Origin: Saccostrea cucullata
Taxonomy: Eukaryota
Direction of reading: 5' to 3'
Assembly (NCBI RefSeq): GCF_032062105.1
Contig: NW_026932975.1
Coordinates: 186,001 to 250,000, forward strand
DNA length: 64,000 nt
Shown: positions 590-59,500 of the stretch, one piece after another
Layout: every line of letters starts with the position of its first letter
Position numbering within the stretch: position 1 is the first letter of the stretch
The notes under the pieces: model-generated
Databases searched by the model: none
Seen by the model: only the letters and a program-made list of their open reading frames with translations
Told to the model about the DNA's origin: nothing
Translations under genes and position numbers: made by a program

Positions 590-1800
590 TAACGTTTACA
601 TGAAAAAAAAAGAAAACAATGTGGCCTTAATTTCTACATTCAGATATATCGAGACGTTTATCAGTTAATTAAGAAAGCTACATTCATTTTTATGTCGACT
701 CGATATAACCCATATAACTCCATAAAAAGACTTCAAAGACTTCTCAGAGTTTGTCACATCTGTTTCATATTCACCAGATGTTTAACAAACTATAGAGAGA
801 TACATGGAGATAACTAATAGTATTTAAGCTCCAAAGTCCATTAATTATACAAAAACGCAAACACGATCTGTAAAGGAGGAGAGGTGGGATCAGGTGCTAT
901 GACGGAATGAGCACCCCCTGCCGACCGGTCACACCCTCCGTGTGCTCCTTGTCATGATCAGAAAACAACGGTAAATCCGGCAATTCAGTGTGTAATTAAT
1001 GGTTTAACAATTAGTTTTAAAAAAACGTCATTCAGAATATTATTTAATCATGTATTTTTTCACAGAAAATACAAAATGATGACTTTAAACGAGAATGCTG
1101 AAATTCTTGTTTCGTCAACATGTTTGACAATAGTTTGCCTCGTTTTAAAAATTTATATGTAGAGCATGCTCTTGCATAATAAATAATAAACTAACAGCTT
1201 AATTGTATGACAAACGAGAAAACAATCGTTTTCCATCGACAACTTTCCTTATTTATAAGGACTATTAGTTTTCCGCTGTCGTCAACTTTTCTTATGAATA
1301 CTATTTGTTTTTCGCTAACAACTGCATATGGTGTTTATGTTTTCAAACTAAGTCAATACGTAAAATCTTGATTTGAGTGTGATCAATTTTATAAATTGAG
1401 GTAGGCTACTGACAGATAAGTTGGTATAACACGAATTTCAACAAACTCTTAAAATTATCGTTGCGTTTAAATCTATGGCTCTTTTTATGTCCTTGTTAGC
1501 AAATATAACCTTTCATTGGGTCGAATGTAAACTCACAATCTTAATTCCAGTCATTAGACCTTTGTTGTTGTTCATACTGTTGTTTTCTTTTCTTTCTAAA
1601 TTTCACTACAGAATATTTTTTCAACCTGATCAACACATAAAGCTCACGGCACTTATGACCCGTTGAGGGAGTGTGCTTTCTCATCCAAAGGCAACTGGTA
1701 CTACTCAAGGAATTTTCATGCCCGTGTTTTATGCCCTGTTTTGATTAGCATTGTTTGCATTTTTCAAAGAACATTCCTTGTTTGTGATCTTCACACTTTT
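590..1800 (+). mobile_element. Penelope-like RT C-terminal + 3' UTR fragment, interrupted by an antisense copy
   Basis: STFRYIET (decayed YIDD) at about 635-655, LYDKR...NFPYL at about 1205-1255, 3' module at about 1620-1800. Confidence 0.75.
793..1187 (-). mobile_element. Penelope-like 3' end fragment
   Basis: Family 3' module GGTGGGATCAGGTGC...CCCTGCCGACCGGTCACACC. Confidence 0.85.
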
Positions 1801-4184: not shown

Positions 4185-4348
4185 GACTCACGGCATTGTC
4201 GGGTGATCATGTAGTGTATCCGGTTAACAGGGGATATTGACTCCTTCTCGGCACCAGATCCCACTCCTGGAATTTCCAGGAGTTTGTGTTTATGCCTTGT
4301 TTACAGATTTGTTATGTTTGAAGTATTTATAAGATCGGTCGCTGTTTC
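4185..4348 (+). mobile_element. Penelope-like 3' module
   Basis: CAGGGGAT..ACTCCT..GGCACCAGATCCCACTCCTGGAATTTCCAGGAG. Confidence 0.75.
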
Positions 4349-8574: not shown

Positions 8575-8735
8575 AATGAAATAGCAAAGATGTCGAACAG
8601 TTATCAATCTTATTAATCCTGCAAATGTACAGAGCAAAAAACACGGACATCTGCAAAAACCAGGGGTGGGATCAGCTGCCTCAGAAGAAATAAGCATCCC
8701 TTGTAGATCAAGTACAGCTGCCGTGAGCATTCTGT
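8575..8735 (-). mobile_element. Penelope-like 3' module
   Basis: ACACGGAC...GGTGGGATCAGCTGCC...AGCATCCC...GCCGTGAGC. Confidence 0.75.
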
Positions 8736-10074: not shown

Positions 10075-11372
10075 CGTTCTTTTATTCCGAAACTTCATAC
10101 AAATCCTTACGAACAAAGATACATAGCGGGTTCCAGTAAATGTTCAACCAAGTCTCTTTTTTAAATCCTCACTAAGATATTAACAGTAATGAAGGAGAAA
10201 CTTCAAGAGTATACAGTGCAACAAAATATTCGAGAAATGGAATAAATCAGATGTGGATAATTATACATTCCAGGGAACTTTTGGAAAATTTAGATTGCAA
10301 GATTTTTCCAAAATAAACTGCTTAAAAACTTACGATTTTTCAACTTTGTACACAACCATTTCCCACGATAAATTAATGGCCATGCTTTTTTGATATTGAC
10401 AGCTGCTTTTTCAATAAAAATGGAACTCGTAAATTTACTAACCTTGTCATTGGTAATTTGCAAAATTACACTGAAGTTGACGTCAAAAAGATGCTTGAAT
10501 TTTTGATTGACAATATCTATGAGGTTATTGGAGACCAGGTCTTCCAACAATCTATTGGAATACCCATGGGTACCAATTGCAGACCTTTTTTGTATTCATA
10601 TGAAGCAGAATTTTTCCAAAACCTTATTACCGTGAAAAGAGGACAAAACTTGCTATGGCATTCAACTCGACATTTAGATACATCGACGACGTATTGTCAA
10701 TTAGCAATGGTTATTTCCATTCTTATGTCGATAGGTTATATCCCGGTGAGCTTGAAAAAAGATACCATAGAGTCTGACACATCTGTTTCATATTTGGATA
10801 TTTTACTTGAAAAAGACGTTAATGGTAATCTAACAACCAAGCTCTAGGATAAACGTGATGACAAATTTTTCAATCGTCAGCTTTCCTTACTTATGCACCA
10901 AAATACCTTCAACACCTGCATATAAGGTTTATATCTCTCAGTTGATTCGATACGCAAAAGCATGCTCTGCGTATGTACAAATTCTAAAACGAGGAAAATT
11001 AAAGACAAACAAGTTGATGAAACAAGAATATAAGCAGTCTCGTTAAAAGTCATCATTTCGTAAGTTTCATGTTCGATTCAATGACCTTGTCAACAAATAC
11101 AATTTATCATTGAGTCAAATGCTGACTGACGTTTTTCATACTAATTGTTAGGCCATTATTTACACTCTAATTTGACGACGGATTTTTTCGTTATTTCCCG
11201 ATCATCACACAGAGCACACAGTAGGTGTGACCGGTCGGCAGGGGATGCTCACTCTTTCGTGGCACCTGATCCCAGCTCTGATGTTTTTGAGTTCCGTGTT
11301 GGTTCCGCTTCTATTTTTTATTATTTATGACTTTTGAGCTTGAAAACTGTTTGTTATTTCCATATATTTCAT
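10075..11372 (+). mobile_element. Penelope-like (Naiad-type) element, 5'-truncated pseudo-RT plus 3' UTR
   Basis: PKLH.NPY..RYIAGSSKCS, DFSTLYTT, GIPMGTNC, FRYIDD, ISQLIRYA.ACS; frameshifted; no GIY-YIG after the RT. Confidence 0.9.
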
Positions 11373-12649: not shown

Positions 12650-12860
12650 ATTTATACACCGAATTGACGACGGATTTTCCCGTTATTTCCTGATCATGAC
12701 AAGGAGCACACGGCGGTTGTGACCGGCAGCAGGGGATGCTCACTCCTCCATGGCACTTGATCCAACCTCTGATGATTCGGAGATCCGTGTTTGCTCTGCT
12801 CCTATTTTGTATTGTTTTATGGACTTTGATACTGAATTCTACATTCGTTATCTCCATATC
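12650..12860 (+). mobile_element. Penelope-like 3' module
   Basis: Close match to the family 3' module. Confidence 0.85.
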
Positions 12861-12894: not shown

Positions 12895-14900
12895 GAAATA
12901 TGAAGACAACCAACATTTATTACGCTCAAAAGTTCAATGAAACAGTACAAATCAGGAGCAGAGCAAACAGAGAGCTCTAAAAACACCAGAAATGGAATCA
13001 GACGCAATGGAGGAGTAAGCCCCCCCCCCCTCTATCAGCCGCTCACGTCCACCGTAAGCTCCTTGTCATGATCGGGCAACGGAAAAATCCGTAGACAAGT
13101 TATACCCCATTCATACGACGAAAATTTGCTTATGTGTGCAAATTTACATATAAGAAAATATACACACGTAAGTAAAAGTTAATTTGCTATGCGTTTAGAC
13201 GAGATTTATGTACTGTAAGTAAATCCTTGTATTTTCATATAAAATAAGGAGATACACAGATTCAAAATTGTGGATTTTTATACAAAAAGGTTATTTTCTT
13301 GAACTATTTCGGTATAAGACTAACATTTGAATGTTCGAAATATAAGAAACTAGGGGGAAATCCTCAAAAATCCATTTATTTTTTGGTACGGATAAAAGCG
13401 AACTATTAGGAAAAGATTACACACGAAAAAAGAAAAATTGATTAAAATCATTGTTTAAAGTTGGATAATGCTTTGGTCTCGGTCCTTAAGACTATAGTAG
13501 CCGTTGGGTTTTAAGAAAAAGATGGTTGACTACTGGTTGACGTCTTCAGCACGATAAAGGACGACTGGAAATCTTTTTGGTGTTTGGAAATCTACAGTAC
13601 ATCAAGTTTGCGAGTTCATTTTGAAGTATCTGCTTGTATATTATATATATATATTCCAGGAGAATGAAATGGGCAATCGATAAAAAAGAAAAAAAAATAT
13701 GTGAATTTGAAATAAATACGAATCCCCATGAATCATGGAATACTTAAAAATGCTTATTTTCAGCAGTGTTGTTGAAATTCCTGTAACATCAATTTATATG
13801 TCAGTAGCTTGCCTTGATTTAAAATTAAAGAAGAAACTCAATCTGTAATTGGACCCGCCCGATTGATGCAATGCCTATACCTATCACAGCTCCGGAGCAT
13901 TCCCATGAAGACTACTCAGTACTGTACTTGAATAGTAAGGGGACTACTGATTGATCCTGCAGGACACATGTTTGTGCGACCACAGCTATATTTTTATAAT
14001 TTGTAGGCATAATCATAGGTTTGCCAGAAAGGGTGCAAGATGCGCACGTTTTTGCAAATTCAAATTTATCTCAGGGGGGACTGGAGATGTAGTGTGGATC
14101 CTTGTTTTCAGAGTTGAAAAAGCCATTTGTTGAAAGATCTTTGCTAGTACAACCCGGCGTATCCTTTAAAGCACTACCCTTATCAAAACTCTTCATTTTT
14201 ACTTTCAGCTGTCCTTGAAGTACATGTACACTAAAGATGGCCATAAAAAAATCCAGTTTTTTTCTTTTTCTTTCTAGCCGCCATGTTAACAGATTGATAT
14301 TATACACTTTACAATGCATAAACAACCGAAACAACACTTAAAATGTAGATTTATGCAATAAACAAAACAAAATACATACATAAGTAAATTTGCTGCGTGT
14401 TCATACGACAAAATTTACTCACAAGAACTAATAATTTGCGACAACATGTATGCAAAAGTTAATTTGCACCTAGTCCTGACCAGGTGTAAATTTACTTTTA
14501 TGAAGCAACTGTGAGAATTTACATGTGAAAAATCTGTATATACGACAAAAATTGCACATGTGAGTAAATTTACATATGAGTAAAAAATACTGAGCTATGC
14601 AAATCATGTCGTATGAATGGGGTATTAGTGTGCAAATAAGGCCTAACAGTGTAGATGAAAAAAAAGTCTTTTACACTGGAAGGCTCATTATATCGACCAT
14701 AGCATTGCTAAATTTTGATTAGTGACATTCTTGCCTCATTAACTCACCTGCCAGCAGCGTGCATCGTTTCGACGTAGAGCGTATCTAATCTAACGGTAGA
14801 CATAAACTTCAAAACGCAGGTGATTATGCTATATTGCTACACAAATAAGTGAAAATGACGATGAAAAAGTTGAAGTCATCACGTTTATCATAATGTATGT
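12895..14900 (-). mobile_element. Penelope-like 3' fragment split by a Harbinger insertion
   Basis: 12895-13102 and 14625-14900 rejoin into the family consensus. Confidence 0.7.
13103..14624 (+). mobile_element. PIF/Harbinger deletion derivative (1,522 bp)
   Basis: Perfect 17-bp TIR TACCCCATTCATACGAC, TTA TSD, transposase remnant YWLTSSAR*RTTGNLFGVWKSTVH at 13531-13602. Confidence 0.85.
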
Positions 14901-14914
14901 ACGAAATAAATTCA

Positions 14915-15030
14915 AATATATGGAGATAAAGGGCAGCTTTCAAGCTCAAAAATCCATTCAACAATTCAAAGGCAAAGCAAACAGTACCTCCAAAAATCTG
15001 AGGTGAGATCAGGCGCCACGGAGGAACGAA
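14915..15030 (-). mobile_element. Penelope-like 3' module fragment
   Basis: ACCTCCAAAAATCTGAGGTGAGATCAGGCGCCACGGAGG. Confidence 0.7.
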
Positions 15031-15074: not shown

Positions 15075-15710
15075 TACTCAAGAGCATGCTCTGAGTACAA
15101 TATTTTTTTTAAACCAAGGCATTTCAAAAATAGATAAGCTAATCTTTTCGTAAACATCAATACTAGTAGCCGTTATAATTAATTTTTAGTAAAAATAATC
15201 TATCATTTGGTCATTTGTTTGTTTGCTTTTAATGTTCCTTGAATTTTTTTTTACTCAGATTGAGACATCACCACTTGCTGCTGCAAGGGCTGCTTATTTA
15301 GACTTGTACTCTGCACTTCTGCACTTTCTGTCTTTGAGTAGTGAGAGATTTTTTTTTACATGCCATCACGTATTGGCACTCGAGACTTCGGTTTATTAAA
15401 CGGTCCGTTATGAAACCCGCGTTGTAAGGAACACACTCTTCTCTTGCGACGCTCTAACCACTGCAACGACTGAGGTCGTATGGGGACTGATATTTTTCGT
15501 GCCAATTGTTAGGTCATTGATTTTATATTTAATATTCGGTATACGCAGAGCTATCTGTAGGTGTGACCGAGTGACGGTATTGCTTACTTCTCCATAGTTC
15601 TTGATCCCATCTCTGGAATTTCGTGGGATCCATGTTTTATGCCCTTTCTATAGATTTTTATTGTACTTTTGTTGTCGATCACTGTTCTTTAGCTTCACCA
15701 GCTTTCACAT
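15075..15710 (+). mobile_element. Penelope-like 3' fragment interrupted by a SINE
   Basis: AGAGCATGCTCTG..., resumes at about 15478, 3' module at 15545-15710. Confidence 0.6.
15215..15475 (-). mobile_element. tRNA-derived SINE, decayed
   Basis: A-box-like CAGTGGTTAGAGCG, body similar to 24605-24845, (CAAA)n tail. Confidence 0.65.
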
Positions 15711-20938: not shown

Positions 20939-21060
20939 AAGGATGAAATTTGTAAAGAATACAGATACAAGTTCAGGATAATAAAAAGTACAATGTATAA
21001 GGATGAAATTTGTAAAGAATACAGATACAAGTTCAGGATAATAAAAAGTACAATGTATAA
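20939..21060. repeat. exact 60-bp tandem duplication
   Basis: 20941-21000 is identical to 21001-21060. Confidence 0.97.
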
Positions 21061-21179
21061 ACGATGTTTTTTTTTTTTAATAAATGACTACCATGAAATT
21101 GTTAGTAATGGAGGTGATCAACAAAAAGTCATCAGCTAGACAGTATATTGGTCGATACAATGACCTTGTCGGCAAATAT

Positions 21180-21535
21180 AATGAAATACGTGGAGATAAC
21201 GAACAGTATTCCATATCAAAGTCCATAAAACAATACAAAATAGGAGCAGAGCAAACACGGACCTCCAAAACATCGGAGGTGGGATCAGGTGCCATGGAGG
21301 AGTGAGCATCCCTTGCCGACCGGTCACACCCGCTGTGTGCTCCCTTTGATGATTGGGAAATAAAGGGAAAATCCGTGGACAACTCAGTGTGTAAATACTG
21401 ACCTAACAATTAGTATGTAATTAACGTCATTCAGTATTTGACTTGATGGGTTACATTTGCTGACAAGATCATTGTATCGACTATAAAATTTACGAAATGA
21501 TGACTTTAAACGAGACTGCTGATATTCTTTCATCA
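21180..21535 (-). mobile_element. Penelope-like 3' end, best-preserved module, nested in a plus-strand copy (about 21125-21790)
   Basis: Near-identical to the reverse complement of 11030-11370. Confidence 0.88.
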
Positions 21536-23069
21536 ATATCAATCATAAAGTCAAATACTGACCGATGTTCAAACAAATTGGTGAGCTATTATTTTCAGAC
21601 TGATTTGTCTACTTATTTTCTTTGTTTGCCCGGTCATGACAAGGAGTTCATGGCCGATGTGACCGGTTGACCCTGCGGACGCTTACGCCCTCATCATAAG
21701 GAAAATATCAAAATACATCACACGTTGTTGCCTTCATATGCAGTTTTCTGATTGTGGACTCTCGATCAGTTATCCATATCTCAGCTCTTCTCTACTTCTC
21801 TCCTCTTAGTTTGGATAGTGCATTGTTGCAACCTCAATTGAAATACGACCACTATTGAAATATTTTTTTCAATATTGGATGAAGGTGCATTTCAATAATA
21901 AACGTGCATATCGTTTAAAACAAACTTCAACCCTCTTTAAACAAGAATATTTTGAGTTGATATTGAGCTCAAATTGGCTTGAAAGGTAAAACATTTAAAA
22001 ATATTTTTTTTTAAAAATGATCTTTTTTTTTACTAAAAAGTTTACTTGAAAATTTTGCACATTAAATTGAATATTAATCTTTAATAATACTGAGATATGA
22101 TTACTCTTTAATGTCAAAGGGACATTCAATGAAATATTTCATCAAAAAGGTACCCTCTAGGTTACCATAGGCAGAAGTATTATATTTCTTAAAGAAACAA
22201 TTTGGCCAAATTATAACTTTCATGCAATATATTCCATTAATACTTTGTCAAGTGTTCTATATCAATCTAAACAGAAGAATCTCTTTCTTATCAAACTGCT
22301 TCGTCACAATACCTCTCAACTCAAGAATTGAATTTTTCTCAGTCGAATCAGCTGGAGGCGTAAGTTGACTATAAAGAGATAAAAGAACATAAAGTCAGAC
22401 ATTGAACAAAAAGAGAATAAAAGATGCATAAAGTCTTTTGTGACGAAATACAAAGAATACTCAATACAAAATGGTTATTTTTCAAAGCGCAAACCGACAC
22501 AATCAACAATAGTTGGTAAAATAGGTAAGATTATCTAACTTTTAATACTTGTTTTGGCTTTTTTTATGATCAATCTTTGAACAGTGAATTTTTCAGTGGA
22601 ATATGTGTACTTAATTGTAAATATTTATTTCTGTTAAAAGGAAGAACTGTGATGATTCAAAGACATCATAAATACAGAGTAAATCTTCAAAACCTATAAT
22701 AAGAAAATGAGAAAATCATCAATATAATTATATTTTCTTAATATTCAAAATTATTTGCTAACAATACATGTTGGAAAGGAGGAGAATAATAAAAGAGCTG
22801 AAAAGGTGTGTATATTACCTATATACATCCAAAGTATATGTCCTTATTACTATCCCTGGTGGGATTAAAAATATTACTTAGGATTCAAGAAATTATATGC
22901 TTCATATGTTTCAAGGTTTCAATCCAACTGATTCTAAATTCATTCCAAGTCTTCATTTGACCTTAACTGAATCGACACTTTGTGAGGCGATTTTCCAGAG
23001 TTTTGACAAAAAATGTTGAAAAGATATTTTCTAATTGTCCCACCTTGGAAAACAGATTGCTGATGTAGT

Positions 23070-23480
23070 ATGAAAATAAATAACAGTAATCAAACTCAAA
23101 ATTTCATTTAAAACAATACAAACTGGGAGGAGAACAAACACTGATCTATAAAATCCTTGGAGAAAGGATCACGTGTCATGGCGAAGTTAGCATCTCCTGT
23201 CTAACCGTCACACCTGCCGTGTGCCCCTTGATGTGATAAGGCAAACAGAAAAAATACTTAGACAAATCAGTGTGAAAAAATAATGGCCTTACAACCAATA
23301 TGAAAACACGTCAGTCAGATATTGACTTGAGGATAGGTTGTATTTGCTGACTAGGGCCATTATATGGTATCAATCAAAGAACTTGTGAGATGATGAGTTT
23401 AAACAAGATCTTTGATATCATTGTATAATCAACTTATTTTTCAAAAACTTGTCTCGATTATTAAATTCCTGACATAAGTT
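23070..23480 (-). mobile_element. Penelope-like 3' fragment
   Basis: Diverged match to the family consensus. Confidence 0.7.
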
Positions 23481-27790: not shown

Positions 27791-28170
27791 AAATGTGGAG
27801 ATAACAGACGGTATTCAAACTAAAATGTCCACTCAAACAATACAAACTGGGAGCAAACACAAACTCTAAAACGTCAGAGATGGGATCAGGTTTTATGAAA
27901 GAGCATCCCCTGCAGACCGATCACATAACACCATGTGCTTCTGGTCATTACCTTACAAAATTATTAAAATAGAATAATTTGTAGACAATTCAGTGTGTTT
28001 ATACATGTGATGGCCTAGCATTCAGTATGAAAAACGTCAGTCAGCACTTGACTTAATGAAAGATTTTTTTTTTGCTGACAAATTCATTGTATCGACCATA
28101 GAACTTGCGAGGCTTTAAGCGAGACTGCTTATTTTCTTGTTTCATCAACTGGTTTGTCAGTGGCTAGGCT
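27790..28170 (-). mobile_element. Penelope-like 3' fragment
   Basis: GATGGGATCAGG...GAGCATCCCCTGCAGACCGATCACA; CATTGTATCGACCATAGAAC. Confidence 0.8.
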
Positions 28171-31239: not shown

Positions 31240-31950
31240 AAAGTCGAGCACGCACGATGATTCGTAAAAAATTCGAAAGAACTTTCAGACAATTTAAAAT
31301 CGTAAAATGTTCAAAAGCCAGTAGCATCAAAATGTACGACTTTTTCACATTGTAATAACAATCCCCACGATAAATTAAAAACTATGCTTTTTTATATCAT
31401 AGACAACTATTTTCTCAATAAAAATATGGAAGTCGGAATTTTTTTCTATATTGTGATTGGTATTCAACAAAATTACTTTTTTAAAATCCTATACTCTGAC
31501 ATTGATATTAAAAGGATGTTAAAGTCTTACAGAGAACTGTAATACTGGAATATAGATAATTGTCCTTTATTAGCTTACCTTTTTTTATATTCCTATGAAG
31601 AAGATTTTATTCAAAATCTTCTACATGAGAAGAAGAAAACACTTGTTTTGGCCGTTATCTCGACATATTTGATATATTATTAATTAACAGTAGTTAATTC
31701 CATTCAAATGCCGATTCGAACCTATCCTAATAAACTTGAAATAAAAAAAAATATACGCCACAAAGATTGCCTTTCTTTTTCATGCTGAAGTGAACTGTAG
31801 ATAGAAAAGGGATGCTTACTCCTCGTTAACAGCTGAACCCACCTCTGAATTTCCAGAGGTCCGTGTTGATTCTCTCTTCATTTTTTCATTTGTATTGTTT
31901 ATAAATTTCCTCAGTTCTATCATTGTTAGTTATCTTCACTTTTTCCATTC
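31240..31950 (+). mobile_element. Penelope-like RT fragment + 3' module
   Basis: YDFFTL..TIPHDKLK, FLYSYEEDFIQNLLH, 3' hairpin ACCTCTGAATTTCCAGAGGT. Confidence 0.8.
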
Positions 31951-31974: not shown

Positions 31975-32265
31975 CATACGGAGGTGGGATCAGGAGCAAT
32001 GAAGGAATGACTATTCCCGGTCTCATTTGCCGTGTGCTTCTTGTCATGGTCAGATTGAACAAAATTCCGTAGCAATTTAGTGTGTAAATTATGGCCTAAC
32101 AACTATGGTGAAAAAAACACGTTAATCAGTAATTGACTTTACAATTGATCGTATTTGCTGACAGGGTAATTTGATTTATCATAGAACTTGTGAGATGATG
32201 ACTTTTAAAGAGACTATTAATTTGTTTGTCTCATCAAATTGTTTGTTAATAATTCGAGATTTTTT
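31975..32265 (-). mobile_element. Penelope-like 3' fragment
   Basis: GGAGGTGGGATCAGG...GCCGTGTGCTTCTTGTCATG. Confidence 0.75.
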
Positions 32266-35724: not shown

Positions 35725-37225
35725 AATGAAATATATGAAGACAACAAACAGTTTTCAAGCTCAAAGGTCCATTAAAACAATACAAATCAAGAGCAGAGCA
35801 AACAAGGGCATCCTAAACATCAGAGGTGGGGTAAGGTGCCATGAAGTGAGCATCTCTTGCCGACCAGTCACAACCGCAGTGTGCTCCTCAATCGTCGTGA
35901 TCGGGAAATAACAGGGAAATCTGTGGACAATTCAGTGTGTAAAATAATGGCCTAACAATAAGCATGAAAAACGTCAGTCAGTATCAGACAAGGCCATTGT
36001 ATCGACCATAGAACTTACGAAATGGTGAATTTAAAGCAATATGAGCTGAATTTTTGAGAATTTTATTTTGCTGGTAAAGTGTGTTATAATGATTAATCTG
36101 TATGTAACCTAAACCCTTATGATCAATAAAACAAAAATAAAGTTTAAAAATGTTTCAGAAGAAATATTTCTGTACAACCGAACATACAGTATTATATAGG
36201 AAAACATTAATGTACAGGACGACAATGATTCAATTTTGCTTCAATCAAAGCGTATAAAAAGTTCTTTCATAGCAAATATGAACAACAGAAGTTTATAAAT
36301 GTTCTATTTTTCTATCGTTGAAATAGTTAATTACAAATTTGCAACATTTTTTTTCCGATGTCAAACATGCAGCTCATATTGCTTTAAACGAGACTTTTGG
36401 TTTTCCAGTTTCATCATCTTGGTTGTCAATAACTTATTTCTTTTTAAATATTGCTCAAACATAGAGTATGCTCTTGCGTATCGATATAAACCCTGTATGT
36501 ACGTGATAAGAGTATATTAGGGTATATTGCTATATACGTAAAGGAAGTTGACGATTGAAAAGATAAATCAACACGTTTATCATGAAGCTTTGTTGTAGGG
36601 CTAACATAAACCTCTTTTTCTAGTAGATCCAAATATGAAACAGATGTGTCATATACATCATCTCGACATGTGAATGGAAATAGCTATTGTTAATTGATAA
36701 TACGTCGTCGAATACCTGGTCACCAATAATTACTTACGGTACCAATTGCTAGAAACTCAAGCATCTTTTTATTACAACATGTATCAACTTCAGAGTAAGT
36801 ATGTGTACAATAAGAATGGTTTTAACAAAATAATGTTGCAAATGACTAAGACAAAGTAATTATATTTACGTTCCAGGTTTATTGAAAAAGCAGCTGTCAA
36901 AAAGTAAAACTTTAATTTATAGTTGGGAATGGTTGTATGCAGAGTAGAAAAGTTGTAAGTTCAATGATGCTTTTGATAAAATGTTGTTATTTATTAAAAA
37001 TTTCAGAAATTCCCTGGAATTTTTAAGCACCCACACATATGATCTACACCACTTCTCGAATCTATTGTTACACAGTATTCCCGACGCTTCTCCATCACTG
37101 CTGTTCGTATTGTATCGAGCAGTAAAGAAAGAGGCTTGGAAGAACATTTACTAGAACCACTATGTATCTTGGAAGGATTTTTGTGAAGATTCGAAATCCA
37201 AAATAGAGATGGTAAACTACAGACA
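35725..37225 (-). mobile_element. Penelope-like (Naiad-type) element, 5'-truncated, containing a Kolobok-like insertion
   Basis: LHKNP..RYI.GSSKCSSKPLS, MWVLKNSREF, TTKLHDKR, 3' module at 35725-35930. Confidence 0.85.
36035..36383. mobile_element. non-autonomous TTAA DNA transposon (Kolobok-like), 349 bp
   Basis: TTAA TSD, perfect 14-bp TIR AGCAATATGAGCTG (21/23 extended); removing it restores the PLE consensus. Confidence 0.85.
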
Positions 37226-50500: not shown

Positions 50501-53500
50501 TAATATCAGGGATCATAAAACGTACTGACGCAGAAAACGTGATGGTCTTCTGACACTTTGTCATAACATCACCGTTGGTACTTTATGTAGATGAGACGAT
50601 GCAACAAAATTACTAGTATCCTGGACAAAAATAGTGTAGTTTTTATAGTTTACCATCATATCTTCTAAATATTTTGTGTTACAGTGTTGTCTTTACTTAC
50701 ATTTGATTAATACAAATACTTTCATTTTAACATAAACTTTTTATAATAAAAGATTGGTTATGCAAATCAGATTATGAAAATATTAATTGTAAATGCCATA
50801 ATTTGAACATTAAAAATACATGCAAAGAATTGTAACAAACAAACGTACGGTAAAAACATGCAGAATAATGCACTGTAAAAGAGCAGTGGAATAAAGAAAT
50901 ACGGACTTCTTGCCAGAGGGAATTTCACATACAACACTGACAGAAGCGTGTGAACAAACCTGTAGAAAAGCTTCCAAAAGTAAAGTCTTCCAAATTAAAG
51001 AAATCAAAGTTATTTGGATGATTTAGTAGGTAATGGTCTACAGTGATCGAAGGTATCACAGTCAATGGACCAAAGTTAACAGATGTTGCCCTATTTTCCG
51101 TTTACGTCAGATATCAGTACACACATATATTAATCAATTTTTAGCAGAGGTGAAGGAAAATTATTTTTCATTCTTATTAAAAAATTCAATTACTATCAAC
51201 AATTTTCTCTCTTCTGTTAAACATTGTAGAAATATTGTGCGGGCTATATAAAGATGTTATACAGGTGTAAAACGTCATTTGTGCTAAACATGTTAGTTAG
51301 AAAAGCCAGTTGTGTAAAAAAGTATTTTGCAGAAAGTGCAGTTTTCCTACCTTCAGGTCATCAATGTTCTGCTTAGTGGCGGATCCCTGATTTACTGGCA
51401 CCATGAATCGAGCCACCGTCTTGGAGCTCTCATCAAGCCAGTCACACAGGCTCTTCCAAGCATCGTAAAACTAAAATAAATGTTAAAATAAGTTAATATT
51501 TTGAAAGAAATAAAACATCTGTCAAAATACTTCACATATATTCATCACTATACATGTATATGTATTTACCCTTCATTTTGCCACAGAAAAAAATAACTAA
51601 AAGGTAGCCAATATGGTTTTCAGCAATAAACTTTAATAGTATTATTATTGTTTAGTTTTATTTACTTCTTCTTTACTCTTTAAGTGTAAATTTATAAAAA
51701 TGAAATATTTCAATAGTATATACCCGTTTGTCCTCTCTGTATGCCGACCTAAGAAGACGTCCTCTTTCATCTGTTCTTCGCATCAACTTTTTCCATCGTA
51801 ATTTGATTCCAACAAGGAGATTCTTTATATATATGGTATCTTGTTTCTTTCCAAAGTGTTTAAGATAGCTTCCATTCTTTTCAAGACTTTGCATTTTCTC
51901 TATATGCTGTTCCAATTCTGATTTTAATTTCTATATATAAAAGAGAAAAAGAGTACCGGTATGTTTGAAAATGAACAGAAGTAAATGTTTTCTTAATTAT
52001 CTTTCCTTCTATTCAAAGCTAAAAATATTTTCGTCACATTTACCCGTAAAAATAAAATTTTACTTACATTATGTTCTTCTATCTGCATGGTGACTTTCTC
52101 CACCAATTTGCTAGGATATTTGAAAGATCTCATGGCAATTTCGGCGCTATTTAACCATTCGGTAAACGTCTTCAGTGTATCATGGAACTCTCCAACATTA
52201 CGAAGATGTTCAGAAAGCTTATCCTAGAATTAAAGACAAATATATACAATATAAAAAGTACTTAAAAGGGTCATTAATCAACACATGCAGTTCATTTAAA
52301 GATGTTTTCCTTCAACTTACCTTTCTCTTTTCTGCACGGTCCTGTGTGTCTCGCCACCGATCCCCAAGCTTCCTTATTTTCTCCGTAATCTGAGCTGCAT
52401 CTTGTGGAGAACAAGATTTAGCCAGTTCTTGTCCTTTGGCAATAAGTCCCTGAGTTGCTTCATTTCTAGATTCTAGCTCCTCATATTTTGCCATGAAAGC
52501 ATCAAACTGGGCTTTTGATGTTTCTGGAAGAGCCCCGCAAGGAACGGCTGCTTTGAGCTCATTTCGGAAATCATTCACCCATTGATACGCATCATCCAAG
52601 TCTCCAAGGTACTTTTTCACTTGACGAAGATTTTCTTGCAATTTTGCTTCTTTGTCCCGTAGATTGGCCTGTGTGGCTCGAAGCTGTTCATTCATGGCAT
52701 CTCTTTTTTCTTTCAACTCAGGACAGTCTTGGATTGCATCAACGGCTGAACTTAGTTTCTTGCATATTTTATCTTGATTTTTTAAATCGTTATTCATCAC
52801 CTAGAGTCAAGAGTATATTCTTAGTTTCTTTGATGTCTTTCTAATTTTAATGTCAATAAAAAATGTACCTGACATTTCTATATTATGTAAAAAAAACTTA
52901 CTTGAAGTTTTTTCATATATGTTTCCAAACATTTAGGATCACCCTTCACACCTTCAAACTTCTCAAGGTCTGATTGCATCTTTTCTAAGCTACCTAAACT
53001 ATCGTTTATTCCAGCATCCAGCTCACCCAACTTCAGCTGCATAGAACTCAACTTTGCCTTTGAATAAACAAAAGAGTCAGCATTAGCTCATAACAGACAT
53101 TTATGCTCTCGCATATGAACATCTTTGAAACAAAATAATGAAATTATCACAGTTTATATAATTCAATGTAGTTAGTACTTCTCTGTCTGTGATTCCTTTC
53201 AGTAAAGCAGTCCATCTCTGGTTGATTTCTTCCACTGGTCTCTGAAGAGCTTCGGCAGCTACAGGAGACATGTCCTTTAGAGTTGCTAACTCTTGATTTA
53301 GTTGTTGAACGTCCGCCACATGAGGATGAAGTTCGGATTTATTGGACTGCAATACATGATTGGTAAGTGGATCTTTACTGCATGTATTTGAAATCATTTA
53401 CGAAGAAATAATCACTTTAAGAAATCAAGAATAAGCAAGAAATCGGGTAAAAGAAAGGTTTCAATTGACTACTCTAAAGTTGTCGACAATATAAATATTT

Positions 53501-56500
53501 CAAAAATGTATTCTAACATAATCTACATGTTTCTATGAACTGAATCATGCAACACCATGCAGAAATGAAATAGATCAACCAAAGTAAACCCATGCATCGC
53601 AGTAACTCCTCTGTGCCTTTTCACACTTTAAAATGTTTTAGCTGACTTTCGTAATTGGAAAGGGATAGAAATTAGTAAAACAGGAACTGCATGATGTGAT
53701 AAAAAAAATCTCTACATCACAAAAACACAAAGTAATATATTAATAGTAGAGGTTAATATATGCTATGAGGTTACGTGATTATCAATGGTCACGTTATAAT
53801 GCTACACAAGTATGATACAAACCCCTTGAGGTTCAATATATATGTTACTCGCAAACACCTGCAACATAGTTTATAGGAAGACGTCAACCAAAGCAAAGAA
53901 ATACACACCTAGTCCACTTACAGAAATGTCAATAAGAATAACAGTCTAATTGTATTACATGATGTATTGTTAAAATATCATAAATTTATAGTGTTTGATT
54001 TCATTATTTGAGAGGAAAAGAGTTTATTTTTATGTTATAAAGTTATATTACTTTCTAAAATGTTAGATTGGCTTGAAATTTACGAGAAGATTTAAGGATT
54101 AAAAACGTTAATATCATCTTTCAAACGCTAAAATCTCAGAATATTTGTCATTTTTCAATGTTAGTTAAGCACACTTTTGTTAGTTTTTAAATAATATATT
54201 TCTTAAAATAAATGATATTGTGATACAAATCAAATAATATAATAATATAACAGAGTTGTATCATTTATCATGTTCATGCAACATACTTTGAAATAAATAT
54301 CGCATACACGATTCATGCAATTGACAATGTTTGTTATATCTTACCTTCAGTTCCTCTATCTGGGATTTCAACGTCTTTGGATTACTGGAGGGTGCCTCCA
54401 TATCATCCAGAGCCTGTTCTGTTAAAGGCATCCAAGTCATAATCGTCTGCAACAAATCAAGTAATGGGTCATTTTATGATCAGTCCTATTTTCTAAATGT
54501 GTTTGTTATTGTCAATTATACTATGTGTTGACATATATTGCTTACTTCGTCATTTATTTACTAATAAATAACCATTCAATTCCAACCTTGTGTTTTCTTT
54601 TGTGTCAAACAGAGCACTACCGTATCAGGTATTCATAAGTACTAATAGTAATGGAATTTGACGAAATTTTTACTTACTTCTTGAAGCTCTTGGAATTTCT
54701 CAGTGTGACCAAGTGCTTTCTTTAGGTCCTCTTCCCTGTCACGTGCAATATCATGCACATCATCTGCTAAGACGTGGATGTCTTCTAACTGTTTTCTGAT
54801 CTCCATCAGACCTGGGTCACTACATAGTCCACTAAGTTCTTCTCCTAATTGTCTACACTCTTCAAATGAAAGTCTTGCTTTTCCAAGTTCTTTTCTTAAT
54901 TCCTGAATCAAATAAAGATCAAAAATATCATTTTTCATTCATTTCACTTTCTGGTCTAACATAAATGTAATATTAATTTTAAGGTTACAAATTTCTTTTA
55001 CCTTTAGTTCCTTTTGTTGTTCTTCAACAGTTGAGGAATCGACACCTGGTGGTTCTTGAGATAGGAAATTGTCCTTTAGATCCCGTAAGTTAGAGACTGT
55101 TTCGTTACAGGAGTCAAAAAACTTCTCTGCAACTTTCACAGCACTAGATAATTCAGCTTCCCTTTTCAAAGCAGCCTCTCTATTTTGATTATTCAGCGTT
55201 GCTATTTCTGTTAACTTTAACTTGAGGTCTTCAGCTAATCAATGCAATATAAAACGAAAATTAATTTTAAAAACCTTTGAATTCGAGTAATTCCTCTAAC
55301 TTGATGTTGTTTTTAGCAAGACTAAATGAATATTTCTTTTACCTTCTGCAGGATCATCCACTCCTTGATCTAGAACTTTCTTCACAGCTTCATCTGCAGC
55401 TGCAATGGCTGGACGCTGATTTTCCAGATCTTCAAGTAACAACTGAACGAGAAAAGCAATGGTATACATAAATAAGCGGTTCGTAATTAATATATTCTTG
55501 TAATTTATATAAAGTTCTTTTCAACGTGTCTTACATTGTTTTGTCTGATTTCGTCTCGCAGCTTATCAGGACTTGCTGCCACAGGATCTGCTGTTGCTAA
55601 ATCTCTGTTCAGTTGTTCTAGATCTCCTAGGATGTGATCCAATGAATCTGAGACCTCCTGCGTCATCTTACTCCTAGCTACTGTAAGTTCCTTTGCTTTC
55701 TCTCTCGCTTGAGTTTTAAGTTTTTCATATTGTTCATTATATTTTAAAAGTTTTGTCTGAATATCCCCTGCATCATCATCACAACACAACTCCATTAACT
55801 CCAAACCCGTTGTATTCAGATCTTCTAAGAAAGGTTTGTGATCCTCAATCTTTTGTTGAGTGTCCTGAAAAAAGTACAAATGTTTATATCCAAATGCCAC
55901 ATGCACTTCTTTTTGTTTGTTATTTTCTTGCATCGTTTGCTTTAAGATTGGAAAATATTGTAGTTGTAGTTGTAAATTAATGTTTTACCTCCAATAAGTA
56001 TTTTTGCATGTATTAGACATATATATATATTATATATTCCATACTTTGAGTTGATTTGTTCTCTTACTTTAACGAACATAATATATTAAGAAGGATTTGT
56101 AGATTTTAACTTTGTTTTTTAAAGGAAGGTACGGAACATATTAAGCTTATTTTTCAGTTTATCCTCTTGATCATTCAACAAAACAAAATCAAAGTAGATA
56201 AAAAAAATTTTAGTCGAAAAGATGGTCAAAACAAAAGGGTAAAACAAAATTGAGCTAGAATGTATATCTTTTTAACTAACTTTAATATTGTCCAACTGTT
56301 TTTTCACTTGTTCTAAAGTGTTTCCTGGTGATGAATGAGCTTTTAAGTCTGCTTCCATTTCGTCAAGCCAGCTGTGAATTTCTGTTTGGTTTTCACTGAA
56401 GTGTGTTGCAAGAGGAAGAGCAGATTCTAGTTGATGCAGACGTTCTGCACTTAATTGGCAGACGATATCAGCCTGTGTTTTGATGCTTTCTAGTCTTGAT

Positions 56501-59500
56501 TTGATTTCATCAGTTTGGGCATTGGTTGTTTCGCGTAACATTCTGTTACATTTGTTGATGATGTCTTTGACTGCATTTCTCTTTTGATTCAGATCCATGT
56601 TAAACGACTGTAAGGAAAATGTATTCATCAATAACACACTGACTGCAATTAAATAAGTACTGCAGTATTTTCAAAAACATCGTCGACTATTTACCACAAC
56701 TATAATTGATAGTATTTTAATAAAAAGCATTAAATCACTTTACCTGGTGGTCATGAAGTTGAATTGTGAGAGTTTCTGGTTCAACATTAACTGGTTCTGC
56801 CGTGTTGATTTCATTTTCAGCTTTATCCAGGTACTTCAACATTCCATCAATCTCGGTTAGAGCCTACAATGGACATGATAGATATACCCCACATTTGTAA
56901 TGTACAATTCATCATAAAATGTTGAGAAAAATATATACTGTAGCTATTCTTACCTCCAACGACACCTGCTGCACTAAATGTTCCGTTAATTCATGCCATT
57001 TTACTTCAACCTCCCCAAGGCATTCTTTCATTGCAAACTGATCACAAACTCTTTCATCCTCCATGATCTGTTTTGCTGATTGTCTGAGTTTTTCCATATC
57101 ATATTCTTTCTCCCGTTTGTCATTATACAACACATCTATCTTGGCTTTTATAGCCTTTTGATTTGCACCTTTTTGTCTTGTTTTTAACGAGGTAATTGCA
57201 TCAGTAAGCCAGGAATCCATCTGGCCGATGTTGTTTTCCAGTTCGGACACACTGCAAGCTACATCTTCAATTTCCATCGTTATTTGATCAGCCTCCTTCT
57301 CTACCTCTAACATTCTAAATAAAAATTACAACTCAGTGTATTTGCTATTAAAAAGCAGTGTGGGTTATATATATTCTTTTTATTCCAGAACATTGAACAA
57401 AACCTCAGGTTATTTATCAAATTTTACAAACCTTTCATTCAGTTCAAGGATTATCCCTTCTGCATCATTGTCCGAGGTCTTTTGTCCAGTTTCTCGTGAT
57501 ATCCTTTCTAAGAGTGTTTTATTCGTTTCTATTTCACCATTTAGAAGACGTTGTTCCTTTAACTGATTACCAAGTCTATCTTTGTCCAGACTTATTAATG
57601 GTCGATCCCCTAACGTGTTCTCAGTCTCTGATATCCATCTTAACAGTCCATCCAAGCGATTCCTAAGGTTTTGTTGCTGAGACACTGCCGACGAAAGTTC
57701 TTCTTCTTTCTCACTAATTTCTCCTTGTAAAGCTTCGTGTTTTTTCTTCATTTCAGTCATAGCTTTCTTAACTTCATCTGCTTTTTGTTTCATGTTTATT
57801 TCACTTAAACCTTTGACCAATTTTTCACCACCTTGAAGAAAATCCTTTAGCTTTCTGTCTTGTCCTATAAGATCTGCTTTTAAATCTTTCACCGATGCCA
57901 GGTCTTTTGCATCTTTTTCTGGATTTTTTCCGAGTCCATTTCCATGAATGTTGCTAAGACGACCCTCGATTTGTGGATAAACAGAAGAAAGTTTGTCTTT
58001 CAAATCATCGAAACCTTTCTTCTGTTTCATTAAGGCGGCAAGTCTTTCCATATGCTTGGAACAGTCACGTGACACATCTTTGTACTTTTCTTCCAGAGAT
58101 TCGATTTCGTCATCGATGATGTTGTTGTCGACGTCCTCCTTGATGGGAGGCAAAACCTGGATACGCTGTCGATAAGCTTCAGCCTCTTTTTCGAATTCCT
58201 TAAATAAAGAAAAAGGATCAACATAAAAAGATTGTGAAGATATGGAAGACAATTTGATTCAGAAGACAATTGCAACACTTACTCTCCCACATTTTACAAA
58301 GAAGTCGAAATGTTGACATGTACAAAGATCAACATCGTCATCGTCTTCATCGCTGTATGAGTAATTGTTAGTAATCAAGCCCTCTCTTTTTTCTATTGAA
58401 GCCATTATACTCATGTCATTGATCACATTTTGCACTCATTAATATCAAAAACATATCATCCCGTTGTCAGATACATACGTAGGATCTAGTTTCCTTTCTA
58501 GTACGTTCTCCCTTTTGTTTTCTGTCATGCTTTCAAATAAGCTAAATCAATGTCCGGTGCTTACATAATTTAGGTTGGTTCCATTTCAGCAAGAATTTTG
58601 ATCAACAGTATATTCCAACTTAAGGTTAAGCAAGCGATTTATCAAATTGTCAACACAGTACACTGAACTACCCGAGCTTCGATCAACTCTGTGAATCGAT
58701 GAATAATTCATGAATATGATGTACAAAATACAATTGAAAGAATAATTTGAAATTTAAAGAAATGTCGATCTCCGTCAAATTGATGCCAAGTGTTTATTTC
58801 TTGCTATCTTCTATTGCACACACCGTTCTCTCTGAGAATGTCGTTGTGAACTTCCAGATTAAAAGGATTTGTAAATAAACCATTGTGATAGCACTGAAAG
58901 AGCTTGAATGAAGAGGTGGATAACAGACGTAATCGATGATAGAGACAGAAAACTGGTAAACCGATTAATTCCTTATCTTTTGCTTTCTTTTTAAAAGTTT
59001 ATGGTCACTCCATGAATCAGAGGATACCAATTGTGTTGTAACCCGTTGAAAAAAAAACAAGGATTATGAATTTGTATTCAAATAGTTATACTAGCATTTC
59101 CTTCATGTATAATGCAATGATAAAAAAATCAATTGCATTTTGTGCCATACGGATTTTAAAACGTGAACTTTCATCGATAATTCCTGCTAGTACAGTATAA
59201 CAAAAATGTAAAAGAACTGGCCTGTACAACAAGGTTTAAAAACGTTAGCCAACTTCCAGATGTTCCAGATCTTATCCAAAGGTTATACACAGTAATGCTA
59301 CTCTTGCAAAGTTAAAACTTAACTGAGAAATCACTTCGTTCTACTAGATTAAATAATGCTTCTGCAGTGCATATTTATATATGATTTATATTCTTTTCAA
59401 GAGCAGTTTAACAAAGTTATTGAAACATTTTAAGACTTTAAAGGATTATTGATTTCAAGGATCTGCATGTAGATCTGTTGCTGAGATTATAGGATCAAGA

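Follow-up and report, generated by a model that had tools for sequence, protein, structure and literature searches.

Introduction

Dimeric hammerhead ribozymes were reportedly described in Penelope-like elements (PLEs) by Lunse in 2017, in the account of papers that cite this work. The PLE hammerheads are palindromic, lie in the pLTRs, are thought to cut as dimers and are weakly active in vitro, and circular templates have been proposed for PLEs (PMC4209133, PMC6765202). In the only PLE said to have been assayed in vitro, the hammerhead was dispensable for insertion and cut only together with protein (PMC11167929). Naiads, a group of PLEs, are described as lacking canonical hammerheads, and this loss was read as the ribozyme being dispensable (PMC8557442). 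About ten classes of self-cleaving ribozyme are counted, nine well studied and one proposed, and pistol, hatchet and twister sister were discovered by following up places where classes alternate (PMC10085705).

We analyzed a 64,000-nt stretch of DNA from Saccostrea cucullata (the window), in which a first-pass annotation had noticed a conserved block of ~85 nt after the RT stop of a Naiad-like element and suggested that it was either the RT recognition element or a non-canonical ribozyme. The block was present on the minus strand, and it belongs to a family of motifs built around two palindromes and a pseudoknot. Judged by its sequence, the fold of this motif matches no Rfam family and no RNA class described in the literature searched. 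The novelty concerns the fold; the role proposed below is already known.

Results

The motif lies in the 3′ UTR of a Naiad element

The focal copy sits in a decayed, 5′-truncated fragment of 359 nt that comprises the end of the RT ORF, the 3′ UTR and the 3′ terminus (Table 1). Its minus-strand identity to an intact element of the same genome (L021) upheld both the Naiad host and the sense strand named in the first-pass annotation. L021 has a pLTR and a single stop-to-stop frame of 1042 codons, in which a GIY-YIG endonuclease domain (aa 174-262, E 1.7e-4) precedes RVT_1 (aa 808-894, E 2.3e-4), both matches being below the Pfam curated cut-off. This is the Naiad arrangement, with an N-terminal GIY-YIG ahead of a C-terminal RT in one ORF. 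Translations of L021 and of a second element, L022, contain CSC and DKA, corresponding to the CxC linker and the DKA variant of DKG that define Naiads (PMC8557442). Partial tandems forming pLTRs, frequent 5′ truncation and a unit of 3310 nt (Naiad bodies are 3.3-4.4 kb) were also found; in genome G000, a 32-nt terminal pattern gave 1975 exact 3′ termini compared with 62 exact tandem junctions, and reversed-pattern controls gave 0. By these features, the host of the motif is identified as a Naiad Penelope-like element.

Three G000 contigs have tandem junctions ~3.3 kb apart, one of them with three junctions in succession; these head-to-tail arrays lie at C22741:105940-112592, C12737:39127-42466 and C19795:19814-23160. 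In intact copies such as L021, where it occupies 1969-2052 on the minus strand, the motif starts ~61 nt past the stop and ends ~74 nt short of the 3′ end of the element, and in tandem copies it is duplicated in the pLTR. The published elements Naiad_Sglo and Naiad_CGi (Penelope-2_CGi) are hosts of the motif, and the 3′ end of Naiad_Sglo is near-identical to that of our intact copies. In the accessible portion of PMC8557442, the only statement on RNA structure for these two elements is that canonical hammerheads are absent.

Fifteen motif matches were found in the window, 14 by BLAST and one partial, fewer than the ~18 first counted. Five of 84 positions separate the focal copy from L021, one of them being the G of an otherwise near-invariant CAG. 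Because this CAG is changed to CAA, the copy is likely dead. Its outer-stem 5′ strand reads ACACAG, one G>A change from the intact family, so that of the outer stem ACACGG/CCGTGT in the first-pass annotation the 3′ strand was correct and the 5′ strand was not.

Three other features were recorded. A direct duplication of ~58 nt lies just left of the focal fragment (window 20944-21060). Long coiled-coil-like ORFs on the minus strand of the window (52312-52800, 55505-55984 and 57410-58258) are, at a guess from their translation, probably spectrin-repeat/plakin-type exons of a host gene. Elsewhere, an unrelated LTR-type element with a 388-codon gag/protease-like frame (L023:1-1164, minus strand) stands beside a Naiad copy.

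Table 1. Positions in the window of the focal Naiad fragment, the parts of its motif and the other motif copies
Feature	Position	Strand	Evidence
3′ fragment of Naiad, 5′-truncated, decayed	21178..21536	-	blastn against intact copy L021, 83% over 373 nt
Whole motif, ~85 nt	21255..21339	-	
Outer stem, 5′ strand	21333..21339	-	at least 5 of 7 positions pair in 10 of 14 groups; no null test
S1 5′ strand CGGGUG, near-invariant	21327..21332	-	98% of cells paired, no two-sided change
Palindrome 1, 10 nt, putative intermolecular helix	21317..21326	-	two-sided change in all 5 pairs; 98.9% paired
Near-invariant CAG linker (here CAA)	21313..21315	-	alignment A1
Pseudoknot S2 5′ strand GGGAU	21308..21312	-	two-sided change in all 5 pairs; fully paired in 11 of 14 groups
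Near-invariant GCUYAC, candidate catalytic strand	21302..21307	-	A1 columns; partly imposed by search pattern
Palindrome 2 (CCAUGG in focal copy), putative intermolecular helix	21292..21297	-	all three pairs form in 11 of 14 groups
S1 3′ strand CACCUG	21286..21291	-	
Pseudoknot S2 3′ strand AUCCC	21281..21285	-	
Variable hairpin P4	21261..21280	-	4 bp or more in 12 of 14 groups; greedy search, no null
Outer stem, 3′ strand CCGUGU	21255..21260	-	
Longest Naiad fragment in the window (broken RT + 3′ UTR)	10084..11365	+	82% to L021; motif at 11212-11300
Motif copy	12704..12792	+	BLAST
Partial motif copy	880..947	-	BLAST
Motif copy	35800..35886	-	BLAST
Motif copy, 3′ half, holding the hairpin variant at 31841	31809..31867	+	BLAST
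Old motif copy, holding the hairpin variant at 4263	4214..4290	+	BLAST
Old motif copy	23166..23224	-	BLAST
Weak motif copies	27855-27925, 14979-15025, 8639-8703, 12981-13026, 31981-32018, 15581-15637		BLAST

Pairing is maintained across families by compensatory change

In the sense direction, the first half of the motif consists of the 5′ strand of the outer stem, CGGGUG, palindrome 1 (10 nt), 1-2 nt, CAG and the first strand of S2 (S2a, 5 nt). The second half continues with GCUYAC, 3-5 nt, palindrome 2 (6-8 nt), CACCYG, the second strand of S2 (S2b, 5 nt), a variable hairpin and the 3′ strand of the outer stem. Pairing was analyzed in an alignment (A1) of 18 chosen sequences, namely the cleanest copy of each family and the focal copy. 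Of its 342 cells, 96.5% were paired, compared with 36-49% when the partners were slid by 1-3 columns. Both sides had changed in 12 of 19 pairs, and on four of five measures none of 500 shuffles scored equally high. Two-sided change was seen in all five pairs of palindrome 1 and in all five of S2, the latter being the pseudoknot GGGAT/ATCCC that the first-pass annotation had correctly drawn. Palindrome 2 was 85% paired in A1, with four oyster rows one column off. S1, the annotated stem CGGGUG/CACCUG that is indeed present in the focal copy, is near-invariant and shows no two-sided change in A1, and its pairing is plausible. One S1 pair is G-U and would be A-C on the opposite strand, and an antisense reading, suggested by a resemblance to the 3′ end of pistol, was rejected on this ground.

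An independent parse covered all 25 strict matches, from 23 loci, sorted into 14 groups. Palindrome 1 was complete in 13 groups, and its inner two pairs formed in all 14 with six different central tetramers; S2 and palindrome 2 were each complete in 11. Strands combined across groups paired completely in 13% and 18% of cases, and none of 20,000 permutations matched the data (permutations and shuffles alike ignore the relatedness of the sequences). The palindrome and S2 segments are free positions of the search pattern, which fixes the invariant flanks. In the variable hairpin and the outer stem, the sequence differs between families and pairing is mostly kept (12 and 10 of the 14 groups, respectively, with no null test). 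In the 12 published consensuses, inspected by eye, both palindromes were self-complementary without exception, the cores of palindrome 2 being of eight kinds if L097 is counted, and S2 was complete in 10.

Folding energy did not stand out, with z-scores of +0.16 in the focal copy and of +0.28 and -1.08 in an intact copy, and folding of single sequences gave no significant result on either strand. Support for the structure comes from covariation and not from folding energy. From these alignments, it appears near certain that the motif is a conserved RNA structure under selection. Covariation had been claimed from three variants of the last hairpin, all of which we recovered (in the focal copy, at 31841 and at 4263); a single hairpin in three decayed copies was weak evidence, and the conclusion stands on the cross-family data. 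The palindrome noticed then is likewise real, although its 10-nt length and its own covariation had been missed, as had the second covarying palindrome (CCATGG). An inner hairpin, AGGGG/CTCCT, had to be discarded: 71% of its cells were paired, 0 of 5 pairs were compensatory and 500 of 500 shuffles did as well. In one locus (L064, ~2300-2450), an insertion of ~40 nt in the palindrome-1 region accompanies an imperfect palindrome 1 and CAA in place of CAG, and this may be a monomeric or decayed form.

The palindromes are predicted to join two RNA copies

The self-duplex of palindrome 1 had energies of -11.6 to -18.1 kcal/mol, compared with 0 to -1.2 for the hairpin, in all 13 cases tested. The central bases of both palindromes change yet stay self-complementary, and neither palindrome has a loop. 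A hairpin requires a loop, and a loop has no need of self-complementarity. Non-Watson-Crick pairs on the sense strand occurred as G-U and A-C in a ratio of 9:0 in palindrome 1 and S2 of the 14 representatives, 9:2 with palindrome 2 added, and 13:5 across all 25 matches; this lean to G-U favors single-stranded sense RNA over DNA. Because the palindromes are loopless, their centers are kept self-complementary and mismatches lean to G-U, we infer that pairing takes place between two RNA copies, and we regard it as highly probable that these copies meet through the palindromes. A tandem transcript would provide both copies in cis. The mark of dimeric PLE ribozymes, a non-hairpin palindrome completed by a second copy, is thus found here at the level of sequence and energy.

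The motif occurs in four phyla and alternates with a twister-like motif

When metagenome contigs were scanned with the RT C-terminus, 219 relatives came up, of which 80 were retained and 69 reach the RT end. The motif was present in 29 of the 69. A second, twister-like motif follows the RT stop in 11, no locus carries both, 20 carry neither and 8 are too short. Among published Naiad consensuses (PMC8557442 File S5), we inspected the terminal ~330 nt by eye in 42 out of 54 and added one through the motif search; 11 nematode and arthropod ends fell outside this reading, and motifs in long UTRs could escape it. The motif was found in 12 consensuses, from two Clytia, three oysters, Tegillarca, Pinctada, four hemichordates and the fish Chatrabus, and the twister-like motif in six, from Morbakka-1, three mussels and two clams. 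The motif therefore spans four animal phyla (hydrozoans, oysters, acorn worms and a fish), and the flanking UTRs of the elements bearing it do not align. In a quick, unbootstrapped RT tree, all motif loci fell in a single clade (40 rows, SH-aLRT 100) that also contains the twister-type locus L076, whose place within the clade is not fixed; L132 and L135 were excluded for short coverage.

As a control, core-pattern matches were collected from prokaryote and viral collections. Full pairing of palindrome 1 and S2 was lacking in 49 of 50, which look like chance, and occurrence in prokaryotes or viruses was rejected. The one match with both complete (L155, RAYO01000111.1) is a 407-base contig in a bacterial assembly; it matches the end of the Pinctada Naiad consensus and is likely contaminating bivalve Naiad DNA. 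Exact-pattern searches of G000 gave no match to the twister-type pattern and one to the UCCGGA variant, which is a lone altered copy. The Rfam check advised in the first-pass annotation gave no relevant match for the motif in window 21000-21700 (E<=10), in 18 motif-type loci (E<=5) or in L070 1545-1660 (E<=10). Literature searches, with most subscription journals and bioRxiv supplements outside their coverage, found no description of the motif.

The sister motif parses as a type-P5-like twister (P2, T1, T2 and P4) with palindromes in place of P1, and twisters are reported to manage without a P1 stem (PMC11662667). One locus (L076) gave a weak Rfam twister-P1 match (15.2 bits, E 1.2); there were 0 twister matches in 20 whole loci (E<=1) and none for L123 (E<=10). 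In a small alignment of this motif (A2), 78% of cells pair, and 62.5% in T1, where MAFFT shifts L136 by one column and leaves its compensatory pair uncounted. We assign the sister motif to twister with moderate confidence. It occurs in 3′ UTRs at L076:2850-2926, L086, L087, L093-L095, L105, L107, L110, L112, L123 and L136. The 5′ half of its second palindrome can pair with the T1 3′ strand, which suggests a monomer off state. Four of the loci, clam-type Naiads, also have SECIS_1 matches just under the gathering score directly after the RT stop (L086:2146-2208, L087:2831-2893, L105:2831-2892 and L112:945-1005). A minimal hammerhead core was found ~340 nt after the RT end in L122, a distant Naiad-related locus.

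A separate structured element lies at the 5′ end. On the minus strand of L022, at 5334-5268, just past the 3′-5′ tandem junction, it gave z = -3.6 with 0 of 300 shuffles as good, and by eye its core is common to oyster, mussel, hemichordate, coral and fish Naiad consensuses; it was not found in the window. In tandems this element adjoins the point where the RT must start, and it is a candidate for an RT-binding or initiation element. The RT-recognition role suggested for the 3′ motif is weakened, because the 5′ element occurs in Naiads whichever 3′ motif they carry and because the RNA required by the PLE tested in vitro is given as the first 172 nt of the ORF (PMC11167929). Conversely, the idea of a non-canonical ribozyme is favored by the position of the motif and its mutual exclusion with the twister-like motif.

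RNA reads and copy ends

The motif is present in RNA, in three oligo-dT runs from one study and in one contig set. No pile-up of read starts or ends was detected in the motif in these runs, which are unstranded and dominated by dispersed fragments; ~80% of the reads continue into unrelated sequence, and almost none span a tandem junction. For the Anolis PLE hammerhead, reads at the cut site were likewise not found, yet cutting took place in vitro with protein, as PMC11167929 reports.

Mapping of copy 5′ ends gave 92 alignments at 90 loci; 33 extending >420 nt upstream were set aside, and 59 young-copy alignments were used. Their 5′ ends were spread along the element without a single pile-up. 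Ten of the 59 fell in motif positions 8-47, where ~4 were expected (Poisson p 0.013, for an interval picked post hoc), and one fell at the guessed cut site. Many pLTRs start upstream of the motif, indicating that the RT copies through it and hence that the template is uncut or re-ligated. Such reading through is as compatible with an uncut tandem transcript, the main substrate of the Anolis PLE assay (PMC11167929), as it is with a circle. A circular or tandem template is consistent with the tandems with 2-3 junctions ~3.3 kb apart and with the pLTRs that reach beyond the motif on its upstream side.

Discussion

We give a probability of about 0.5 to the reading that the motif is a dimer-dependent self-cleaving ribozyme of undescribed fold, which would replace the dimeric hammerhead of PLEs. 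The wider claim, of a new ribozyme class in animals that is active only as a two-palindrome homodimer and interchangeable with twister and hammerhead in PLEs, falls slightly short of an even chance. Two copies, either the pLTR and 3′ copies of one tandem transcript or two transcripts, would pair via both palindromes. This pairing would complete a junction of S1 and two palindrome helices, in which the CAG-S2-GCUYAC strand of the partner would be docked by the pseudoknot, and the invariant bases would make an active site that cuts both copies. Unit-length RNA would then be re-ligated to a circle, and an RT going round more than once would give pLTRs of any length and multi-unit tandems. The compact pseudoknot and the invariant unpaired bases fit an active site, and a partial resemblance to the twister-sister core prompts the guess that the cut falls at GCUY^AC. 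The case for catalysis is an analogy of position for a core that matches no known ribozyme, and its odds are about even.

The same structure could act without catalysis, as a dimer-linkage or RNP signal whose palindromes keep together two transcripts, or the two ends of a single transcript, while the RT-endonuclease binds or switches template there and the invariant bases serve as protein contacts. Retroviral and Ty1 RNAs, which dimerize through palindromes, offer a precedent. All of the covariation is accounted for equally well by such a signal, the mild excess of 5′ ends inside the motif is compatible with RT pausing, and no cut site is seen in RNA reads or at copy ends; furthermore, the PAc protein is a predicted dimer and the PAc hammerhead is dispensable in vitro (PMC11167929). 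Dimer linkage leaves unexplained, however, why a twister-like motif is used within the same RT clade, and the 5′ element common to both Naiad kinds is a better candidate for RT binding. We consider a purely linking role possible, if on balance unlikely. Improbable, in our judgment, is a rearranged twister-sister-like ribozyme, in which GCUYA and (R)CAG would rebuild the internal loop and cut at GCUY^AC. In the TS-like core (G7 C8 U9 C10^A11 A12 / G36 C37 U38 A39 G40), C8-G40 and U9-A39 are paired, and a C at position 12 is reported to be almost inactive (PMC11620745). Our motif holds GCUYA and CAG, both pairs can form and the -1 position varies between C and U (10 U and 5 C of 15), but position 12 is C, the two strands are joined by the 5-nt pseudoknot strand without flanking P1 and P2, and the base ahead of CAG is G in 11, A in 3 and C in 1 of 15. 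There was also no Rfam twister-sister match (E<=10 or E<=5), and twister sister is given as a fold without a long-range pseudoknot (PMC6154101).

Two further explanations dispense with an RNA function. Symmetrical promoter, transcription-factor or endonuclease sites at the DNA level would suit a pLTR, where the promoters of PLEs reside (PMC6765202), and palindromes are typical of DNA sites; in our data, however, the sequence changes freely with pairing kept, the distant segments of S2 covary and sense-strand mismatches lean to G-U over A-C, which makes a DNA element very improbable. That the motif is a functionless GC-rich stretch, retained since 5′ truncation spares 3′ ends, might be argued from ordinary folding z-scores and from the decay of genomic copies, the focal one included. 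This is scarcely credible given the compensatory change across elements of four phyla whose flanking UTRs do not align and a negative control of 1 in 50, and it is largely refuted by covariation.

If Naiads carry substitute ribozymes gated by palindromes, dimer-dependent cutting would be a conserved need of PLEs, with a bearing on the origin of pLTR tandems in the closest relatives of telomerase RT. Were the homodimer class real, it would show that PLEs depend on cutting gated by a dimer, and on a circular template, irrespective of the fold that carries out the catalysis. Even without cutting, the motif would be an undescribed RNA family, predicted to dimerize and conserved in four animal phyla.

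Comparison with known RNA classes

HDV-like ribozymes have a nested double pseudoknot with P1.1 and a J4/2 strand. In our motif, the 3′ strand of the hairpin continues into the outer stem without J4/2, and there was no Rfam match to HDV-like, pistol or hatchet. Pistol has a pseudoknot from the P1 loop to the P2/P3 junction and a GU junction between P2 and P3 (PMC6154101), whereas the pseudoknot partner here comes directly after S1. The covarying topology also differs from that of hatchet, with its P1-P4 and conserved bulges in P2-P3. A SECIS is not indicated, since the 1042-codon ORF of L021 has no in-frame UGA and the Rfam SECIS_1 matches were on clam-type loci, away from the motif; the SECIS elements of clam and spider Naiads are nevertheless alike in being structured RNA in a Naiad 3′ UTR (PMC8557442).

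The motif resembles twister sister and its TS-like (lantern) form (PMC11620745) in a GCUYA strand, the counterpart of GCUC^A, found in 15 of 15 sequences and partly imposed by the search pattern, and in an AG able to pair with its CU. It differs in lacking the loop flanked by P1 and P2 and in having C at 12 and a pseudoknot; in place of an opposite strand G-C-N-A-G between P1 and P2 there is only (R)CAG, one base short, and the S2 strand links the two strands. Twister is characterized by a double pseudoknot, T1 and T2, from loop L4 and by a U-A cleavage step in L1 (PMC6154101). The motif has one pseudoknot and no L4 consensus, and a twister regex matched 0 of 29 motif loci. Compared with the type-P5-like twister motif of mussel, clam and cubozoan Naiads, it has a single pseudoknot in place of two and lacks the NAA cleavage loop and the U-NCC-AA-GN loop, but shares the slot after the RT stop, a first palindrome after a GG-U/G tract and, with most sister motifs, the presence of two palindromes.

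The minimal type-I hammerheads of PLEs have a different core. CUGANGA and GAAA are absent from A1, Rfam gave no hammerhead match, and the one match of a hammerhead-core regex among the 29 motif loci lay 790 nt downstream. Our motif has instead two palindromes, a pseudoknot and a four-helix frame, and its ribozyme status is a prediction. In other respects the two are alike: both occupy a site in the 3′ UTR and pLTR, are duplicated in tandems and covary at the level of families (PMC4209133, PMC6765202), and in both a palindrome would stand for a helix that a second copy completes.
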